From Candidatus Thorarchaeota archaeon SMTZ1-45 (lineage in GTDB: Archaea; Asgardarchaeota; Thorarchaeia; Thorarchaeales; Thorarchaeaceae): 10,454 bases of DNA. The translations under genes and the position numbers were made by a program. The stretch covers positions 1-10,454 of the forward strand of contig LRSL01000111.1 of assembly GCA_001563335.1 (NCBI GenBank), given 5' to 3'. Below, piece after piece: positions 1 to 9,147 of the stretch (position 1 is the stretch's first letter; each line of letters opens with the position of its first letter). Below the pieces are notes generated by a model. That model saw nothing but the letters and a program-made list of their open reading frames with translations. It did not search any database and was not told where the DNA came from.

Positions 1-1059
1 GTTATTGTTAGACCCATTGTTCTCATGTGGACTGACGCAACTGGCAAGGTCAGACAGGTCACTACACCAGAAACTGCTATCCTTGTTGAGAAAGGTGCAG
101 CTGTGGCTGCTCCTGCAGCAGTAGCCCCTGTACCTATAGAACCCACAGAAACATACGAACCCCCAGTGTTGACCGAAGAATCTCCATTCGGACCTGTAGT
201 TGGTACTGGATTTGGAACAAGTGAAGTACGTGACAAAGCATCTGAGATCTTGCATACAACAATGGCTCAAGATAGCGCTGAGTCACTAAAAGCTGCAGAA
301 GAACTTCTCGATCAGCTGTTTGGCGCTGACGAAAGCAGCGCTGCAATGGCAGAGATTGATGATATCGAAGCTCTTGCTGCTGAGCCTACTCCTGAAGAAA
401 CCGTAACAGCCGCCGTGGTGTCTGATGTTGAGAGCCAACTCATTTCAGAAATTCGGACCAGAAGACCAAAACCCCCACAACCAGGAACTGCTGCAGACTC
501 TTATCAGTTCTTATTCAAGACGATGGTCATCGGAGAAGGTGCTGTTGGAAAGACAACTCTCGTCAATCGTTATGTGACTGGCGTCTTCGAGCGTGATTAT
601 AAGACCACAATTGGTAGTCAGTTCGCTGTTAAACTCACACACATCTCACCACCAGAGAGAGAGTACTCGACTGGTATCAAGCTACAAGCTTGGGATGTAG
701 CTGGACAGGCACGATTCAAGGCAGTGCGGAAGATGTATTATTCTGGCGCTGCGGGTATCATTCTAGTTTTCGACGTTACTCGACGCCGTTCCTTCACTGA
801 ACTATCCAAGTGGGTCCAAGAGGCTGACGAGTCAATAGGGGTGCGTGTACCAATGGTCTGTGTGGGCAACAAGACTGACCTACCCGACCGTGCTGTACCC
901 TCTGATGAGGCGAAACGATGGGCTGAGGATCAAGGATTCTTGTATATGGAGTCATCAGCCAAGACCGGCGAGGGTGTAGCGGACATGTTCACTGTGCTTG
1001 CTGAGGTCATGTGGCGAGAGGCTCGCAAGCACCAGGAAGACAAGAAGTCTAGAATGTGA
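1..1059 (+). CDS. Multidomain Rab-like small GTPase (5'-partial): beta-strand-rich N-terminal segment, acidic/Ala-Pro linker, C-terminal Rab-like G domain (about 502-1059)
   Basis: Frame 1 is open from base 1 (VIVRPIVL precedes the ATG at 25), so the true start is probably upstream of the window. The G motifs are complete: G1 GEGAVGKT, G2 YKTTIGSQF, G3 WDVAGQARF, Rab-like MYYSGAAGIILVFDVT, G4 GNKTD, G5 ESSAK. There are no C-terminal cysteines. TGA at 1057-1059. Confidence 0.93.
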   Translation, partial: VIVRPIVLMWTDATGKVRQVTTPETAILVEKGAAVAAPAAVAPVPIEPTETYEPPVLTEESPFGPVVGTGFGTSEVRDKASEILHTTMAQDSAESLKAAEELLDQLFGADESSAAMAEIDDIEALAAEPTPEETVTAAVVSDVESQLISEIRTRRPKPPQPGTAADSYQFLFKTMVIGEGAVGKTTLVNRYVTGVFERDYKTTIGSQFAVKLTHISPPEREYSTGIKLQAWDVAGQARFKAVRKMYYSGAAGIILVFDVTRRRSFTELSKWVQEADESIGVRVPMVCVGNKTDLPDRAVPSDEAKRWAEDQGFLYMESSAKTGEGVADMFTVLAEVMWREARKHQEDKKSRM

Positions 1060-1664: not shown

Positions 1665-3521
1665 TCACTCACCCTCCAAAATGGCATTATGTGGACAGAC
1701 TGCAATGCATGCTCCACACTGGACACACACATGTGCCAAAACGACGGGATAATTGGTATTTGAGTCCCAGACGAGTGCAGGACACCCAAAGTCAGCGGCG
1801 CATATCATACATTTCTCTCTTCTACACAGACCCTGATCTATAATGACTGGTATTGCGCCAATGAATCCAGGTTTTCTCTTGACTTCTTCAAGTCTACAAA
1901 CACTGTTCAGCAAGAGTACCTTCAGACCATTCTTTTGCACAGTTGAGTAGAGTAAACTTATCATTGACTTGATGTCTGTTGCATCTCCTATGGCAAAGAA
2001 ATCTGGGTCAATAGCTCTGACTAGTTTCTCGATTTGAACTCTCTGCAAATTCTCATCCTGAATTTTTGATCCTGGATGAACTTGATACCCTGTCATTGCT
2101 GTAGTAGCATTATCAAGAATCGCAAATGTGAGGTCTGCGTTTTTGTGTCTGGCATTGATTAGCCCTGGCATACATGCATGGAAAAAGGTCGAGTCACCTG
2201 CAACTGATACTACCTTGGAATCAAATCCAAACCGTTGAAGTTTGCCAAGTCCACTCCCAATGCCAATACCTGAACCCATGGCATGCATTGTGTCCATTGC
2301 TTCATCATAGAACACACCAAGAGAATAACACCCGATGTCGCCTGAAACTATGAGTTTACCACCTAACCGCTTCTTTACAGTTCGAATAGACCAGTAGAAA
2401 TTGCGATGAGTACACCCTGCACAGAATGTCAGAGGTCTCTCAATTAACAGGTCTTCAAAATTACGCGCTTGCTCCTCTATTCTTTTCCTATCTTTTCCTA
2501 GCAGTTTCAATAATGCATCCAATACTACATCTGTATTCATTTCTCCATAGCTTGGAATATGTCCTGTCATTTTTCCAAAGAATTCTGGTGCTTTCTTCAA
2601 TTCAACTGAAAGCGATCTTATTGCCTCTTCCAAGAATGGGTCATTCTCCTCAACGAATAGAACACGCTCGCTTTCTTCAAGGAGTTGTTTGATTCTTTTC
2701 CTTGGTAATGGATTTGTAGTACCCAAATTCATGTGACTAATATTTTCAGACTCGAAAGCTTGAATCGCTTCTTGCGAATATAGAGAACTAATGCCACTGG
2801 AAATAACCAAGAGTTTCGCCCTCTCAGTACTCTTAACCTGATTGAACCCCGACTCTTCATACTCCTCTGCCACTCTTTCCATCTTCTCCAAAAGTTCTCT
2901 ATGTCTTATATGTGGGGAAGGTATATTGTAGAGCTTCTCATGTAAGCCAATTGTTTTCCTTGTCCTTGATGACACGTTTCCAACTTGAACCAATCCTCTG
3001 GAGTGCGAAAGCCTGGTCGTGCTTCTAACAAGCACTGGAACTTCATACTTCCTAGAGATTCTGAATGCTTCTTTTGTGATGTCCTTTGCATCTTGATGGT
3101 TTGAGGGTTCTAGTAGTGGGATTTTAGCTGCTTTTGCATAAAACCTAGAGTCCTGCTCATTACTAGAACTATGTCCTTTGGGGTCATCACAAACCACAAT
3201 TACAAGCCCTCCCTTCCCTGAGCCTGATAGATTGAGGTTTAGAAGAAAATCAGAGGCAACATTCAAACCCAAGGATTTCATTGAACATAGAGCTGGGACC
3301 CCTGCCCAACTTGCAGCAGCAGTAACCTCCATCGCCACTTTCTCATTTGTAGACCACTCAACATGGATACCTTGATCCACAGCTACCTCGAATAGGTTCA
3401 TGGCGATTTCTGTCGAGGGGGTTCCAGGATAGGATGCGCAAAACCCTATACCCGCCTCTAAAGCTCCTCTCGCTATTGCTTCATTGCCACTCATGATGGT
3501 GTTGCGCTTAGGTTTGTTCAT
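1665..3521 (-). CDS. iorA: Indolepyruvate:ferredoxin oxidoreductase alpha subunit (TPP-binding, C-terminal 2x[4Fe-4S])
   Basis: MSGNEAIARGALEAG, YPGTPSTEI, EWSTNEKVA, MKSLGLNVASD, SSSNEQDSR, RPLTFCAGCTHR, GDIGCYSL, TPP-binding GDSTFFH...NATTAMTG, and C-terminal Cys clusters CRREKCMICAADFGCP and CVQCGACIAVCP. 618 aa, with GAGG upstream of the ATG. Confidence 0.93.
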   Translation of the reverse strand: MNKPKRNTIMSGNEAIARGALEAGIGFCASYPGTPSTEIAMNLFEVAVDQGIHVEWSTNEKVAMEVTAAASWAGVPALCSMKSLGLNVASDFLLNLNLSGSGKGGLVIVVCDDPKGHSSSNEQDSRFYAKAAKIPLLEPSNHQDAKDITKEAFRISRKYEVPVLVRSTTRLSHSRGLVQVGNVSSRTRKTIGLHEKLYNIPSPHIRHRELLEKMERVAEEYEESGFNQVKSTERAKLLVISSGISSLYSQEAIQAFESENISHMNLGTTNPLPRKRIKQLLEESERVLFVEENDPFLEEAIRSLSVELKKAPEFFGKMTGHIPSYGEMNTDVVLDALLKLLGKDRKRIEEQARNFEDLLIERPLTFCAGCTHRNFYWSIRTVKKRLGGKLIVSGDIGCYSLGVFYDEAMDTMHAMGSGIGIGSGLGKLQRFGFDSKVVSVAGDSTFFHACMPGLINARHKNADLTFAILDNATTAMTGYQVHPGSKIQDENLQRVQIEKLVRAIDPDFFAIGDATDIKSMISLLYSTVQKNGLKVLLLNSVCRLEEVKRKPGFIGAIPVIIDQGLCRREKCMICAADFGCPALVWDSNTNYPVVLAHVCVQCGACIAVCPHNAILEGE

Positions 3522-3644: not shown

Positions 3645-4718
3645 ATGCCTGAAGAACGAGAAAGCGAGCAAAAGACCAAGAGGATAACATCGCTCCTCTC
3701 CATTTCCCACGATAAAGACGTTGATGGACTAAATTCAGCAGCTATTGTATGGAGATATGCCAAAACAAAAGGTCTCGACTTCAAGGCTATTCTTACTGAT
3801 TATGGCTCCTTTGAGCAAGTGTTCTCTTTTATTGCGAAACAAAGAGATACTCTAATCATTATTACTGATCTAGGAATGGATGATACAATAATCGATGTTG
3901 TTGAAACTGGACTAACTAGAGCAATTGCTCAAGACTGTCGAGTTGTTTGGCTAGATCATCATCATTGGTCTGACCGAGCAATAAAGATGATTCTCTCGCT
4001 TGGAAATAATCCAATTCTGAAAGTTAATCATGAATTTTGTGCAGCGGAAATCACACATAAGGTACTCATGCCACGCGATGAGATTTCCACTGAATTGGCA
4101 AAGATCGCGCACGATACAGACTTCAACCTTCGAGAGATTGATGCTGCCACTGCGCTCACTGATGCAGTCAATGTTATCCGTTTTGGAGCGATTGACAAGA
4201 AGGAAGATGTGACTGATGCCCTGTACCCTATTCTTACAAAACTAGCTGAGGATGGGATGGATGGACTTTGGGACAAAGTGTCTCGCAAATTCAAGGACTT
4301 GCTCCTTGATCAACGTGTTGACAATTATAGAAAAGAGAAAATAAAGAAGATGAAGAAGGCTCTAGCTAGACATAGTGATCAGATTATTCATGGAAAACTT
4401 GTTCGTGTTGTGGAGATTCCAAGTGGTCTCACATCCACTGACATGGGCACTTTTGCATCAGATCCTGAGATTCTAACCTCCATCGATCCTGAGATGAAAG
4501 TTGCAGATCTCTTACTCTCACTTAGCCAGGGTGGGATGCTTGGTTTCAGAAGAGGCTCTGATGGGGTGCTATGCAATGCTGCTGCGAAATTATTCAATGG
4601 TGGTGGACATCCATATGCTGCAGGTGGTGAATATGGTCTCTACGAAGACTTCCACGCGGTCTGTGATGATATCTTTGTGACACTATCAAAGAACAAGGAT
4701 TGGATTTCCGATTCTTAG
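3645..4718 (+). CDS. DHH-family phosphoesterase with DHHA1 domain (nanoRNase/RecJ-like superfamily)
   Basis: Motif I SHDKDVDG, motif II ITDLG, motif III WLDHH, a motif IV-like AHDTD, and C-terminal GGGHPYAAGG (DHHA1). Its stop overlaps the convergent gene's stop at 4715-4718. Confidence 0.9.
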   Translation: MPEERESEQKTKRITSLLSISHDKDVDGLNSAAIVWRYAKTKGLDFKAILTDYGSFEQVFSFIAKQRDTLIIITDLGMDDTIIDVVETGLTRAIAQDCRVVWLDHHHWSDRAIKMILSLGNNPILKVNHEFCAAEITHKVLMPRDEISTELAKIAHDTDFNLREIDAATALTDAVNVIRFGAIDKKEDVTDALYPILTKLAEDGMDGLWDKVSRKFKDLLLDQRVDNYRKEKIKKMKKALARHSDQIIHGKLVRVVEIPSGLTSTDMGTFASDPEILTSIDPEMKVADLLLSLSQGGMLGFRRGSDGVLCNAAAKLFNGGGHPYAAGGEYGLYEDFHAVCDDIFVTLSKNKDWISDS

Positions 4719-5686
4719 GATGATTTCTTCTGCAACATTTTCTTCAATATATCAAGAACATCAATACCTGATTCCCATAGCTCGTCAAAGGTCTTTATTG
4801 CATCATTAATGAGCCCAGGGTTGTCACTACGATGGATTAAGGCTGCAACATCTGATTCTTTTGCATGTGTGAGATAGAGGAGCATCTTGTCTTCATTGAG
4901 ACAAATTATTCTATATGTTTTGATAGGCTCAGGTGTGAATCTTAATTGAATATTACCCGTTTTCGTTGCTTGTTCAAATACCTCCACCATCGGAGTCAGA
5001 TGACCCGCCATCAGATTCAAGTTAAGTTTCTCGGACTCAACAGGAGTTAAGAGTCCTTGGACTTTTACCCCTCTAAAACCAGATTGTATTAGCCTTAACT
5101 CAGTCACCCCCCCAGGGCCAAGACCCTCTGCAAGAGTGCTTACATGACCAAGAACTCTGATAAGGTCCCCCGCTTCTGCTTTATCTGCAAATTCTCGAAT
5201 AATATTACTTCTAACATTTTCGATTCCTTCAATCACTAGAGATTTTTCAATCGACTGAGCACCGACTAATTGTTTGTGCAGCATTAGTGCGAGTTCTTGA
5301 CTCTTGACTGATTTTAATCGATTGAGCTTTGTTGTCACTTCCTGTTTCTTTGTCAGATGATCAGCCAGTTTGACTTTTCGTTTTGTTTCGAGGGCTTTTG
5401 CGACACCTGTTTCTGTTATTGAATAAGTTCTGGGAGTATGAATAGTATCAATAGTGATGAACCCTTGTTCTTCCAAGTCGTTTAATCTTCGATAGATGTA
5501 AGCTTTGGTGTACCTTTTGTTGGCTATTTCTTCTAGACTACGAACTATTTCATCGTAATTCACAGATCTACTAGTACATCCAGCAGCTAAGAGAACAGCT
5601 CGAAATACTTGCATTTCGCTTGAAGTCGTATCTATTCCAAGTTTTTCGAGATTACTCTGGAACTTCTTACTGGACACAGTCGTCAC
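4715..5686 (-). CDS. TrmB-like protein, paralogue C (wHTH, coiled coil, PLD-like C-terminal domain)
   Basis: LEKLGID N-terminus; recognition helix and wing YIYRRLNDLEEQGFITID..PRTYS; helical linker; VIEGIENV, RGVKVQGLL, KTYRIICLNED, NPGLINDAIKTFDELW. Its GTG start overlaps the upstream TGA (GTGA at 5683-5686). Confidence 0.78.
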   Translation of the reverse strand: MTTVSSKKFQSNLEKLGIDTTSSEMQVFRAVLLAAGCTSRSVNYDEIVRSLEEIANKRYTKAYIYRRLNDLEEQGFITIDTIHTPRTYSITETGVAKALETKRKVKLADHLTKKQEVTTKLNRLKSVKSQELALMLHKQLVGAQSIEKSLVIEGIENVRSNIIREFADKAEAGDLIRVLGHVSTLAEGLGPGGVTELRLIQSGFRGVKVQGLLTPVESEKLNLNLMAGHLTPMVEVFEQATKTGNIQLRFTPEPIKTYRIICLNEDKMLLYLTHAKESDVAALIHRSDNPGLINDAIKTFDELWESGIDVLDILKKMLQKKSS

Positions 5687-6600
5687 CCTTCAAAAACTTC
5701 TAAATCAGATCCCAATTCATAGTCCTGATCGAAACTGTCTATGGCATTGTCAACTAATTCGGGATTCGCGGATCTCGGTAACCATGTTGCAGACAAGGGA
5801 TTCTCGGAAACCACAAGAACTATCCCTTCGGTATTTCGAGCCACAAATTGATAAGTTGCATCCTTTCGTGGGAATACCCTATAACCAACCTTTTGGAATT
5901 CTTTTCGCAAGTCCATAATTAGTTGCATAGCTTCTTTTCGGAGTTGCCTCTCACTTCTATTATGATCCAATGCCCTAAATTCTACTCCCTTTTTGAGAAG
6001 ATTTTCCGCGTTCAGCAATCTTCGTGTATTCAAGTAGTTTCCTTGGGACAACCACTCAAGTGTGATTCTTATCACATCCCCCTTTTTGAGACCTTTGTAT
6101 ACCTTGTCATCAAGCAACTTCAGCATGTTATCCATACCCTGCGCAAAGGCTGGTTTTTCGATCTTGCTCTTACCAGCTACATAATCTATCAAACGAGCCG
6201 CCAAAGTTACTGAGTTTATCTCTGAAAGAACCTCAATCTCAGAGTCAATCTCTTTCAGTTCATTTTGCATATCTACAATATTTTGACTAACAATTTTCTC
6301 TAATGCTCTCTCCATAGTCGCAATACTGGAATTGTAACCATGTTTGCGACCACTACTATCAATCTTTACAAATCCCTCTTTTTGAAGCCAAGAGAGACTT
6401 CTGTAAATTAGTGGATCCTTGCCTTTTCGTGATCCCTCATCTATTTCTAGTTGTTCCCGTAATGTTTCGAACTCAATATAGTCTGCAGGCTCTTCTTGAG
6501 ATTTCAGAAGAGCTCCAAGTATGACCATGTTTTTTTTGGTTGGATCTAGACCCAGCATCTCAAGCAATTCTTCATGTAATACTTCAGTTTCCACCCTCAC
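5683..6600 (-). CDS. TrmB-like protein, paralogue B (wHTH, coiled coil, PLD-like C-terminal domain)
   Basis: LEMLGLD, LIYRSLSWLQKEGFVKID, coiled coil MQNELKEIDSEIEVL, FAQGMDNM, KGVEFRAL, ATYQFVARNTE, NPELVDNAIDSFDQDY. The start is GTG at 6600 or 6594. Confidence 0.78.
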   Translation of the reverse strand: MRVETEVLHEELLEMLGLDPTKKNMVILGALLKSQEEPADYIEFETLREQLEIDEGSRKGKDPLIYRSLSWLQKEGFVKIDSSGRKHGYNSSIATMERALEKIVSQNIVDMQNELKEIDSEIEVLSEINSVTLAARLIDYVAGKSKIEKPAFAQGMDNMLKLLDDKVYKGLKKGDVIRITLEWLSQGNYLNTRRLLNAENLLKKGVEFRALDHNRSERQLRKEAMQLIMDLRKEFQKVGYRVFPRKDATYQFVARNTEGIVLVVSENPLSATWLPRSANPELVDNAIDSFDQDYELGSDLEVFEG

Positions 6601-6617
6601 TACCCCAATCAGTCTGA

Positions 6618-7649
6618 TTATTCTACTCCTTTTCTACTTGTAATCCTTCTAATTAGTTCTCCGGGTTCTGATGTAAAAGCCTGAATATCTTTGGGAGTCA
6701 TCTCCAAGAATGATTTTGATCGCTTCCATTCTCTGTCAAAAGTTTTCACCGCGTTATCAATAAGATCTGGGTTGAAGTCTCTAGTTATCCAAGTAGCGGT
6801 AACCGGGTCCTCCGCAATTATCAACGCCATGTTGTCTTTGTTGATGCTCACTTGATTGTAGGTTTTTGGTCCTTGATATATGCGAATATCAAACTTCACC
6901 CCATTCTTTCTCAGCTCTCCAAGATGTTGCATTACTTTCATTACCTCTTCCATGTTGAAAGAAACACCTGGAGCCAACTCTTCAATTTTGAAGACTTCAG
7001 TTGATATCATATACCTTACATCTACACCTCTCTGAGCAGTTTCGACGAACTTCATCGTTCTCTCTACAGCCCCCTCTGCAAAAGGAGCTAACCACAAAGC
7101 GGTTGCTCGAATCACGTCACCTCTCATTGCAACATCAAGCATATTGTATCGTAGAACTCTGTGAAGCTCATCAACACCTCGAACTATCCTTGAGCTGATT
7201 TTTTGTTGGGTCCCAGTAATTTTCTTGACAAACTCTTGTGCAAGAAGACCACACTCAAGACCTCTAACTTCTGCAAGAACATTATCAATCTCGTTTCTTT
7301 GGCCCTCGAGCTCGCGAATCCGTTCGCTTTTCAGTTGTTCTAGACCCGCCATCACTGTATTCACATCAGCAATGTACCTCTTGCGGTGTGCTGATGGGTT
7401 CTCCACTCGTACAAGCTGAGCTTCAACTAAGGACTTAAGCACTCTGTGGACCCATGTCTTTGATAGCTTTGTTTCTGTGTCCTCCACTGACAACTGATCA
7501 TAGATCTCCGCAAATGAAAGAGGAATAGGTGGATCGTTCTGAAGTTTGAGAATTACGCTTAGTAGATTCATTGAACGGGATTCCTGTCTGTCGCCAATCA
7601 TGAATCCGCATAGTTCAAGGGCTTTTGAAATACCATCATCTTGCGACAT
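6618..7649 (-). CDS. TrmB-like protein, paralogue A (wHTH, coiled coil, PLD-like C-terminal domain)
   Basis: LELCGF, WVHRVLKSLVEAQLVRVE..RKRY, coiled coil LEQLKSERIRELEGQRNEIDNVL, IVRGVDEL, RGVDVRYMIS, KTYNQVSINKD, NPDLIDNAVKTFDREW. ATG 7649 is preferred because GAGGG lies upstream. ATG 7670 is the alternative. Confidence 0.78.
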   Translation of the reverse strand: MSQDDGISKALELCGFMIGDRQESRSMNLLSVILKLQNDPPIPLSFAEIYDQLSVEDTETKLSKTWVHRVLKSLVEAQLVRVENPSAHRKRYIADVNTVMAGLEQLKSERIRELEGQRNEIDNVLAEVRGLECGLLAQEFVKKITGTQQKISSRIVRGVDELHRVLRYNMLDVAMRGDVIRATALWLAPFAEGAVERTMKFVETAQRGVDVRYMISTEVFKIEELAPGVSFNMEEVMKVMQHLGELRKNGVKFDIRIYQGPKTYNQVSINKDNMALIIAEDPVTATWITRDFNPDLIDNAVKTFDREWKRSKSFLEMTPKDIQAFTSEPGELIRRITSRKGVE

Positions 7650-7682
7650 TAAGTGTCCCTCTTTACTCATTTATGAGCAGCA

Positions 7683-7691
7683 CTAAAAAGT
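7683..7691 (-). promoter_or_regulatory. Candidate TATA-like element for the TrmB-like operon
   Basis: The minus strand reads ACTTTTTAG about 35-40 bp upstream of ATG 7649, in a ~30% GC gap. Confidence 0.3.
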
Positions 7692-7731
7692 TCCATGTTT
7701 TACTAACTTTATGACTGTATACAACCACACG

Positions 7732-7741
7732 ATATATATAT
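7732..7741 (+). promoter_or_regulatory. Candidate archaeal TATA box for the structured RNA
   Basis: ATATATATAT, centred about 25 bp upstream of G7761, where the GC-rich hairpin block begins. This is the expected archaeal TATA-to-TSS spacing. Confidence 0.5.
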
Positions 7742-7760
7742 GCACTTAGTTATATGATTC

Positions 7761-7900
7761 GTCAGCAGCTGTCCGCTGCTAACTCCGGGTGGATGCTTCA
7801 CGGTAATCCACAACGGGCATGGTACAGGGCATGCCGGTGGAACCCATCGGCCACGAAGCAGGGTGGCGCAGGGGGTGTCCCCTGCTTCTTCTCCGTGATT
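7761..7900 (+). ncRNA. Putative novel structured non-coding RNA (~140-155 nt)
   Basis: 63% GC over 7761-7890 (82/130 by hand count), against ~30% in the preceding 90 bp. Five consecutive helices: 7764-69/7775-80; 7789-94/7806-11 (plus 7785-87/7814-16); 7817-21/7830-34; 7833-40/7844-51; 7855-63/7880-88 with inner 7865-69/7875-79. Flanked by a TATA-like box and a T7 tract. No family recognised. Confidence 0.6.
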
Positions 7901-7916
7901 CTCTCTCACTTTTTTT
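7899..7916 (+). terminator. Pyrimidine/oligo-T archaeal terminator candidate
   Basis: TTCTCTCTCACTTTTTTT immediately after the last helix, with T7 at 7910-7916. It overlaps the stop codon of the convergent reductase gene. Confidence 0.5.
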
Positions 7917-9147
7917 AAAGGCCGCTCACAGCGATGGCTCGAAGATATCCTGCCCCAATCTTGGCTACCATCGGTAAGAAGTCTGTCATAAGCGTCATCA
8001 ATGTGCCAACACTTGCATGACCCTGAATCAGTTCGTTCAGAGTCTTGGCATCGAGTTGATTTAGCACGATTTCTGCAGCAGCTACTGGGTCGTTGAACAT
8101 ACTGTATTTGGAAACCGCCCACATACCTTTGCCCGTGTTCATGATGTTAGAGGCTAATTTGGTCTTTCTATACTCTCTCTCGTATTTTCCAACACTCTTC
8201 TCTGAGAAATCTTCTTCATCCACCATTCGTTTTGCATGTTTTGCAAGAACCTGCCCTGCATGAAAACAAGTCGTGACTCCCCCACCAACAATTGATGATA
8301 CCTGTCCTGCTGAGTTTCCACAGAGTGCAACTCCAGCATCAGTGAATTTGGGAATGATACCTGCGCAGGGGACAACACCACCATTCACTGCTGAAATCTT
8401 TGCATTTTGAGTTTCAGGATGAGTCTTCATGTACTTCCGAAGTACATCCTGCATTGGAGGGAGTGAATGCCAGTTCGCTTTTGATGATGGTACACGTCCT
8501 ATTCCAAGATTAATCTCAGTTTCAGATCTCGGATACAACCAGAGATAACCGAGGCCAACATCTTTTCCTACAAAGAAATATGCTACATCAGGGTCTATTC
8601 CTTTACAGTTCTTAAGTTTGAATCGATACCCATAGCTAAGTAGCCACTTTGGATGCTTGAAACCCGCGGTTTCTGAAACACGACTGAATGAACCATCAGC
8701 ACCCACAGTCAGCCTACCATGTTCCTTCCCACTCTGATTGAAATTCACACCAACTACAGAACCCTTCTCTTTTATGACCGAATTCACTCGTGATCTATAT
8801 CTGAACTCTGCATCATCTGAAAGTGCGCGGTCTCGCATGAGTTCCTGGCATTTGTCTTCATCGAAGAGATACGAATTACCAAGCAGGCTCCGATCAACGA
8901 CAATATTGGCTCCAGTGTCCAAACTCTCTCCCACAATTGAATTGTACTTGTTCCCGATATAGTCCGAGTCTGGTCTGACTCTCAAGAATTTCAATGCTTT
9001 ATCAGTGACCAACTCTCCCATGAGTGAGTGTGTGACACTCTCGCGTTTCTCTAGGACTAGTGTCTTTAGACCATATTTTGCAGTCCACTCCGCAGTCATA
9101 AGTCCTGCAGGTCCAGTCCCAGCGATAATCACGTCATATGTCATCAT
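7915..9147 (-). CDS. Geranylgeranyl reductase / DGGGPL reductase-family FAD-dependent oxidoreductase (atypical)
   Basis: YDVIIAGTGPAG dinucleotide-binding motif, VGADG, GYLWLYP (YxWxFP-like), INLGIG, GGVVP, and CGNSAGQV...GGGV (GDAAG-like). 410 aa, with GGAG upstream of ATG ATG. Confidence 0.85.
   Translation of the reverse strand: MMTYDVIIAGTGPAGLMTAEWTAKYGLKTLVLEKRESVTHSLMGELVTDKALKFLRVRPDSDYIGNKYNSIVGESLDTGANIVVDRSLLGNSYLFDEDKCQELMRDRALSDDAEFRYRSRVNSVIKEKGSVVGVNFNQSGKEHGRLTVGADGSFSRVSETAGFKHPKWLLSYGYRFKLKNCKGIDPDVAYFFVGKDVGLGYLWLYPRSETEINLGIGRVPSSKANWHSLPPMQDVLRKYMKTHPETQNAKISAVNGGVVPCAGIIPKFTDAGVALCGNSAGQVSSIVGGGVTTCFHAGQVLAKHAKRMVDEEDFSEKSVGKYEREYRKTKLASNIMNTGKGMWAVSKYSMFNDPVAAAEIVLNQLDAKTLNELIQGHASVGTLMTLMTDFLPMVAKIGAGYLRAIAVSGL

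Follow-up and report, generated by a model that had tools for sequence, protein, structure and literature searches.

The 10,454-nucleotide (nt) stretch of Candidatus Thorarchaeota archaeon SMTZ1-45 analyzed here (contig LRSL01000111.1, hereafter the window; source genome 88% complete) carries a gene for a structured non-coding RNA lying head-to-head with an operon of three paralogous genes, gA, gB and gC, whose products resemble the archaeal chromatin protein TrmBL2 in fold. The best reading of this locus, held tentatively and with a confidence just short of even, is that of a divergent regulator/small-RNA pair, i.e., a lineage-specific small RNA gene and a three-paralogue TrmBL2-like operon that would be transcribed outwards from one compact bidirectional promoter. 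It is supported by the recurrent adjacency of the RNA and gA, the stability of their junction, a conserved motif between the two TATA boxes, the DNA-binding fold of the proteins, the co-occurrence of both partners in one family and the unity of the triplet.

Divergent layout and the structured RNA

The open reading frame (ORF) listing, with the RNA placed in it, gives the following order across 3645-9147:

3645-4718, plus strand: DHH-family gene (ORF), convergent with gC, the two ends overlapping by 4 bp
4715-5686, minus strand: gC, third TrmBL2-like paralogue, 323 amino acids (aa) (ORF); its start overlaps the gB stop by 4 bp
5683-6600, minus strand: gB, second TrmBL2-like paralogue, 305 aa (ORF), 17 bp after gA
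6618-7670, minus strand: gA, first TrmBL2-like paralogue, 350 aa as listed (ORF)
7763-7916, plus strand: structured non-coding RNA, ~154 nt, defined by alignments, covariance models R1-R3 and pair counts
7915-9147, minus strand: FAD reductase of the geranylgeranyl-reductase (GGR) type (ORF), stop TAA at 7915-7917

The triplet operon (4715-7670, minus strand) and the RNA (~7763-7916, plus strand) point away from each other within the 244-bp gap between gA and the reductase (7671-7914), which contains a GC-rich stretch. RNA-like conservation sets in near 7763; the distance to gA is 92 bp when counted from its first ATG (7670) and 113 bp when counted from the more likely start (7649), in agreement with an initial annotation of this DNA that had placed the two head-to-head over about 90-110 bp. 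The overlapping gene ends that it described are also borne out, since the ends of the DHH-family gene and gC share 4 bp and the reductase stop sits on a T7 tract (7910-7916). Its picture of a unit closed on both sides by convergent genes is accurate for the DHH-family gene facing gC; the reductase lies upstream of the triplet in the same orientation, and converges with the RNA alone.

Along the RNA, the predicted elements are as follows:

7764-7780, plus strand: helix P1
7785-7816, plus strand: helix P2
7817-7832, plus strand: conserved unpaired GGCAUGGUACAGGGCA
7833-7851, plus strand: helix P3, variable
7855-7888, plus strand: helix P4, with a G-run (7871-7875) in or near the apical loop; its arms also form the inverted repeat I2 of the repeat search
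7910-7916, plus strand: T7 tract closing the 3' end, after a CU-rich tail

The part most constant across genera is GCAUGUUACAGGGC, followed by a variable hairpin and then by a stem of 9-10 bp, GAAGCAGGG/CCCUGCUUC, whose capping loop invariably carries 5-7 G and which is followed by the CU-rich tail. In genus g9 (L062 5038-5123, L074 4253-4337) the terminal stem bears two G-runs and looks like the outcome of a duplication of the G-rich apical module.

No Rfam 15 family matches within 7671-7916 at E up to 1, the sole CsrC match in the window lying elsewhere (2047-2074) and far below threshold, and ARAGORN finds neither a tRNA nor a tmRNA in the gap. With blastn, the RNA is present in 21 of the 27 other genomes of the genus, as a single copy per genome with 73-95% identity, and in 0 of 33 more distant genomes. 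A first covariance model, based on a four-helix structure drawn by hand, detects a single copy in each of 47 of the 87 genomes of the order. All 47 belong to one family and represent 7 of its genera, across which gA identity drops to 32-48%. It is found in 15 of 26 sampled genomes of that family and in 0 of 124 genomes outside it. Related genomes in all these counts are non-independent samples, and detection weakens in the remotest genera. R3, a shorter model covering the 3' half of the RNA, gives weak matches at the expected place in genera still blank (G067, E 0.01; G101, E 1.1; G071, E 3.3), and none in G066 and the genera g10 and g34; the gaps of these blank genera contain GC-rich hairpins with G-runs when inspected by eye, which is not statistical support.

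Pair statistics were computed on an alignment of 46 sequences fitted to the model, a procedure that favours the structure. In this alignment 28 of the 36 pairs show compensatory changes on both sides, and 88.6% of paired cells are complementary as against 32-51% when partners are slid, with 0 of 500 shuffles reaching the observed values. The paired columns hold G.U and A.C combinations in a ratio of 111:18, and of 57:13 in a plain MAFFT alignment not fitted to the model. A minus-strand RNA would give the opposite excess, and the strand is therefore assigned as plus, despite a slightly better fold of the single sequence on the minus strand (z -3.66 versus -2.37 for plus). That fold is the one point in favour of the GC-rich stretch being a DNA element or a minus-strand untranslated region instead of an RNA gene, an explanation that is barely credible against the G.U excess, the compensatory changes, and a plus-strand TATA box ~25 nt upstream together with a terminal T-run. 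A 54-aa ORF spanning the RNA (7754-7918) was also considered as coding sequence and rejected, as single-base indels occur in it among close relatives. Conservation, compensatory changes and shuffles thus uphold the structured RNA of the initial annotation and, as far as sequence can tell, mark the stretch as a real folded plus-strand RNA.

TrmBL2-like paralogues and the probable shared promoter region

By their sequences gA, gB and gC are three old paralogues, 23-25% identical overall (gA versus gB 25%, gA versus gC 23%), and they are the sole copies in the genome. Sequence searches place them poorly. Pfam and NCBIfam return weak winged-helix matches alone, gC having a weak match to a PadR winged helix-turn-helix (wHTH); PF01978, the TrmB wHTH, has no match in any of the three at E up to 0.01, and single-protein searches of PDB and NCBIfam give only noise or weak wHTH matches. 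Among 109 family members, PF01978 is nonetheless the commonest match, weakly present in 15 (best E 7.8e-5), and a family profile searched against PDB retrieves the DNA-binding domains of Fur (wHTH, E 6.5e-5) and, weakly, TrmBL2 (E 0.004).

Structure is more informative. An AlphaFold (AF2) model of gA computed from the 109 sequences (pLDDT, the predicted local distance difference test score, 93.3) comprises a winged helix, a 34-residue helix (103-136) and an alpha/beta domain resembling phospholipase D (PLD), after which the protein ends; it has the domain order of TrmB and TrmBL2, i.e., wHTH, long coiled-coil helix and PLD-like alpha/beta domain. In a Foldseek search with this model TrmBL2 comes first (5box, E 1.7e-11), TrmB is matched by 3qph (E 3.3e-7) and 2f5t (E 4.4e-4), and PLD-fold proteins come next. 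TM-scores against TrmBL2 structures are modest (0.33-0.45, at 12-14% sequence identity), as expected with differing domain orientation. The TrmB-like wHTH/PLD-like assignment of the initial annotation is consequently right at the level of the fold, with TrmBL2 and not the sugar sensor TrmB as the nearest relative.

The aligned C-terminal domain of the three paralogues, inspected by eye, contains no H-x-K of the catalytic HxK(x)4D (HKD) motif, its conserved residues being T/Y, N, R and N-P. PLDc_2 has one weak match among the 109 family members, and the Pfam family of the TrmB C-terminal (sugar-binding) domain has none, either there or among the window proteins. The PLD-like domain is accordingly predicted to be inactive or degenerate, and the proteins not to be active PLD/HKD enzymes.

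The proteins could still bind the RNA, as the initial annotation envisaged: a hetero-oligomer would bind it, e.g., via the degenerate PLD-like domain, and the RNA would sequester, scaffold or guide its partner. PLD-family nucleases (Nuc, Zucchini, PLD3) do follow TrmBL2 and TrmB in the Foldseek list, Arg, Asn and Tyr of the PLD-like domain are conserved across the paralogues, the RNA exposes an invariant G-run, and proteins and RNA co-occur in one family. Such a ribonucleoprotein or decoy is decidedly improbable, however, given that domain searches detected no RNA-binding domain in the window proteins or the 109 family members, that the closest structures bind double-stranded DNA and that the RNA persists without the proteins in one genome (G001, see below). 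A specific form of this idea, in which the nuclease-derived PLD-like domains of the hetero-oligomer bind the G-rich RNA loop and the RNA titrates or guides a chromatin-type DNA-binding complex, is a long shot; if true, it would provide an archaeal RNA-controlled chromatin regulator specific to Thorarchaeia. A complex prediction for gA, gB and gC, with a separate alignment for each protein, was counted neither way, as a control with gA replaced scored equally high.

The family is sharply delimited, with 178 representatives among 1.84 billion proteins. Triplet proteins occur in 78 of the 85 genomes of one Thorarchaeia family, and 315 other genomes of the phylum yield marginal matches only (E about 1e-6).

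The DNA between the two genes, together with the gA leader, has the following features:

7657-7661, minus strand: GAGGG, similar to a Shine-Dalgarno (SD) sequence, preceding the ATG at 7649
7664-7679, minus strand: small leader hairpin of gA, UGCUCA-UAAA-UGAGUA, an inverted repeat at the listed gA start seen by eye
7701-7724, no strand assigned: conserved 24-nt motif TACTAACTTTATGACTGTATACAA, almost unchanged within the genus and still recognisable in six further genera
7705-7712, minus strand: likely TATA box of gA, within TACTAACTTTATGACTGTATACAA
7716-7723, no strand assigned: perfect palindrome TGTATACA, within TACTAACTTTATGACTGTATACAA
7731-7742, plus strand: putative TATA-like box of the RNA gene, GATATATATATG, ~25 nt before the onset of conservation

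The two TATA boxes lie ~20 bp apart with the palindrome TGTATACA midway, which would put it where factor B contacts DNA on both promoters. The motif TACTAACTTTATGACTGTATACAA is more conserved than the two TATA boxes, the TATA region of the RNA included, and than the RNA itself, and is a candidate shared operator. An AT-rich box occupies the position of the RNA-gene TATA box in other genomes too, and the predicted signals of the RNA gene, the TATA-like box and the T7 tract, fit the limits of conservation, as a divergent pair would have it.

The leader repeat of gA is kept in most genomes of the genus; both of its arms change (TACTCA/TGAGTA versus TACCCA/TGGGTA), and its G.U pairs form on the minus strand, i.e., in the gA mRNA, only (by eye). 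The leader hairpin and the SD-like GAGGG together suggest that the likelier gA start is the ATG at 7649, with the hairpin upstream of it.

On the reading as a divergent regulator/small-RNA pair, gA, gB and gC would probably be made in fixed proportion and act together, presumably as a hetero-oligomer. The proteins may bind the motif between the TATA boxes (TACTAAC...TGTATACA) and would from there regulate the triplet operon jointly with the RNA gene; a ligand bound in the degenerate PLD-like pocket might be the signal. Action in trans would then fall to the RNA on its own, with the invariant G-rich loop and the CU-rich tail as its likely contact surfaces.

Linkage, insertions and triplet-less genomes

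The RNA adjoins gA in divergent orientation in 43 of the 47 genomes with an RNA match (coordinates compared by eye), and both the RNA and the triplet are, as found, restricted to one Thorarchaeia family, so that the co-occurrence and adjacency which the initial annotation proposed to test are observed across genomes. The four exceptions are G001, which lacks the triplet; G104, with a weak RNA match on another short contig; and G021 and G087, whose contigs end at the RNA/gA junction. G021 was rejected as a case of the RNA lying apart from the triplet, its triplet contig ending inside the conserved motif; on its RNA contig (L064, C165, 4612-5278) a truncated PfkB-like kinase ORF joins at the RNA TATA box, and the probable cause is a broken or chimeric assembly, or else a rearrangement at strain level. 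G085, a scaffold with N gaps, was set aside as uninformative.

Insertions provide a finer view of this linkage. In G075, G033 and G003 an extra gA-like paralogue lies between the reductase and the RNA, which still stands head-to-head with the next gA; these RNAs are matched by model R2 (E 4.4e-5, 0.12 and 6.2e-4, respectively), and that of G003, outside the training set of R3, by the latter as well (E 2.1e-5). In G009 the RNA faces a 485-aa membrane protein in the place of the reductase, and in G024 the RNA and the reductase are separated by a 249-aa ORF. Five genomes thus have insertions between RNA and reductase, and none was seen between RNA and gA in the loci examined: the RNA/gA junction is the steadier of the two. 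The membrane protein of G009 (L014 1684-3141, minus strand) is multi-pass with a kinase-like C-terminal part, and the ORF of G024 (L019 1659-2408, plus strand) has an N-terminal hydrophobic segment and starts 18 nt past the RNA end. A fourth gA-like paralogue is seen in L083, L082, L089, L090, L076 and L081 (genera g7, g8, g10 and genome G003), either in the reductase/RNA gap or in tandem after the RNA, with three arrangements within g7 alone.

The same five genomes bear on the possibility that transcription of the RNA gene matters in cis, as an antisense or insulator element that opposes read-through from the reductase, shields the triplet promoter or affects the reductase 3' end. The reductase and the triplet are indeed co-directional, no T-run follows the reductase ahead of the gA leader (past the reductase stop, the first minus-strand T5 comes just before gA), and the RNA terminator overlaps the reductase stop codon. 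This alternative is nevertheless improbable: in all five genomes the RNA faces a gene other than the reductase, and the conserved helices, compensatory changes and unpaired motif point to a folded product and not to transcription alone.

Retention and loss of the triplet are all-or-none in the loci examined: gA, gB and gC follow one another in order in those of sufficient length, and G001 and G066 lack all three. Empty sites of the kind envisaged by the initial annotation therefore exist, and G001 splits the pair by keeping the RNA. In this genome (97% complete) the order is reductase, RNA and DHH-family gene, with no triplet homologue anywhere, and no 24-nt motif is recognisable. Its RNA retains the four helices and the conserved unpaired motif intact, scores 62-75 bits, within the range of equally distant triplet-bearing genomes, and has not diverged beyond that of triplet-bearing relatives (residual -0.07 versus a standard deviation of 0.08). 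G001 is sister to the triplet-bearing G012 (reductase tree support 100/100; 92% reductase nucleotide identity), and its loss of the triplet may be recent, since four-fold sites differ by 21%. In G066 (97% complete) the reductase is followed by a 249-bp spacer and the DHH-family gene, with neither triplet nor RNA match; it looks like a loss, since the genome is nested beside a triplet-bearing genus in the tree with moderate support. G037, a relative outside the family, has zero spacer after the reductase.

Several of these observations weigh against the regulator/small-RNA pair. Adjacency alone is weak evidence, since the whole block of hexapeptide transferase, GGR, RNA, gA, gB, gC, DHH and POR genes is syntenic in the family (36 of 40 loci fetched, 16 genera). 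The RNA does not appear to need the proteins, since G001 keeps an intact-looking RNA; this argues against an obligate module as well, and is suggestive but not final. Furthermore, no regulon is visible in the source genome, where no second copy of the motif precedes another gene: with up to 3 mismatches allowed, TACTAACTTTATGACTGTATACAA has one further match there, which falls within a 640-aa ORF and is taken to be fortuitous and not a regulon site. The motif might, finally, be merely the promoter of gA itself.

The synteny of the block, the triplet-less G001 and the lack of a regulon would all be explained if the RNA and the triplet were functionally unrelated neighbours that originated in, or entered by insertion, the same reductase/DHH gap and were kept there by the rarity of rearrangement in this part of the chromosome. 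This simpler explanation is unlikely, though it deserves to be taken seriously; it does not account for insertions in five genomes on the reductase side of the RNA against none seen on the gA side, and the near-invariant palindromic motif between the TATA boxes exceeds the conservation that a plain promoter needs.

The self-contained cassette of the initial annotation is not supported. Neither direct nor inverted flanking repeats were found beyond short chance-level matches, Pfam reveals no integrase, and the unit has an unchanged chromosomal location throughout the 16 genera examined, so that a mobile cassette is not supported; moreover, the unit sits inside a block syntenic across the family, and its parts are separable, as in G001.

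Genomic neighbourhood, known systems and significance

Beyond the immediate flanks, Pfam identifies POR subunits, a hexapeptide transferase and a Ras-like GTPase among the window proteins, and no transporter, sugar or catabolic operon adjoining the triplet, as the initial annotation had remarked. An ORF for a POR gamma-like subunit (1076-1789) and a large ORF with POR/TPP/ferredoxin domains (1665-3521, minus strand) overlap by ~125 nt, and the upstream TTG of the former is probably not the real start. The Ras-family small GTPase (25-1059, plus strand; Pfam Ras E 1.9e-46, residues 165-328), of a kind typical of Asgard genomes, has an N-terminal extension of ~160 residues without family match.

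The proposed arrangement is not without precedent, contrary to the initial annotation, which knew of no described system of such composition. Bacterial small RNA genes can lie divergent from the gene of their own transcription factor, as in oxyR/oxyS, gcvA/gcvB and sgrR/sgrS. The Thorarchaeia locus shares with these pairs a regulator and a structured RNA placed head-to-head over ~100 bp, a predicted promoter and terminator for the RNA, and a candidate operator in the shared intergenic DNA. It differs in its archaeal promoter of the TATA and factor B recognition element (BRE) type, in a regulation that is hypothetical here, in an operon of three TrmBL2-fold paralogues where the bacterial pairs have single LysR- or SgrR-type regulators, and in an RNA that outlives the loss of the regulator in one genome.

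Among proteins, the best full-length structural match is TrmBL2, the chromatin protein of Thermococcales (PDB 5box, 5bpd, 5bpi, 5bqt), with which the triplet shares wHTH, long helix, PLD-like domain and the absence of a sugar-binding barrel; unlike TrmBL2, it comprises three, sometimes four, paralogues in an operon and is found in a single Thorarchaeia family. The wHTH, coiled coil and PLD-like subdomain are also common to TrmB of Pyrococcus furiosus (3qph, 2f5t), a sugar-sensing regulator, whereas the gA model lacks the C-terminal sugar-binding barrel and no sugar transporter or catabolic operon is adjacent. As for the RNA, 6S and CsrB are small structured RNAs that sequester proteins through a repeated or exposed motif, of which the G-run loop would be the analogue; in contrast to them, the Thorarchaeia RNA has no Rfam match, and its binding to a protein is hypothetical.

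A literature search returned no paper describing this RNA, and none on triplets of TrmBL2-like genes in Thorarchaeia, although supplementary lists of RNA candidates may include it. To our knowledge, gene regulation in Asgard archaea is poorly known and hardly any small RNA has been described from this group. The locus offers a new structured RNA family together with a compact bidirectional promoter bearing a candidate operator, and a new branch of TrmBL2-like proteins with sharp limits, whose members always come as three or four paralogues. The parts are small and can be expressed in vitro, which makes the regulator/RNA idea directly testable. If the proteins do not control the RNA, the latter still stands as a new family; if they do, Thorarchaeia would possess an archaeal counterpart of the bacterial regulator/small-RNA pairs.

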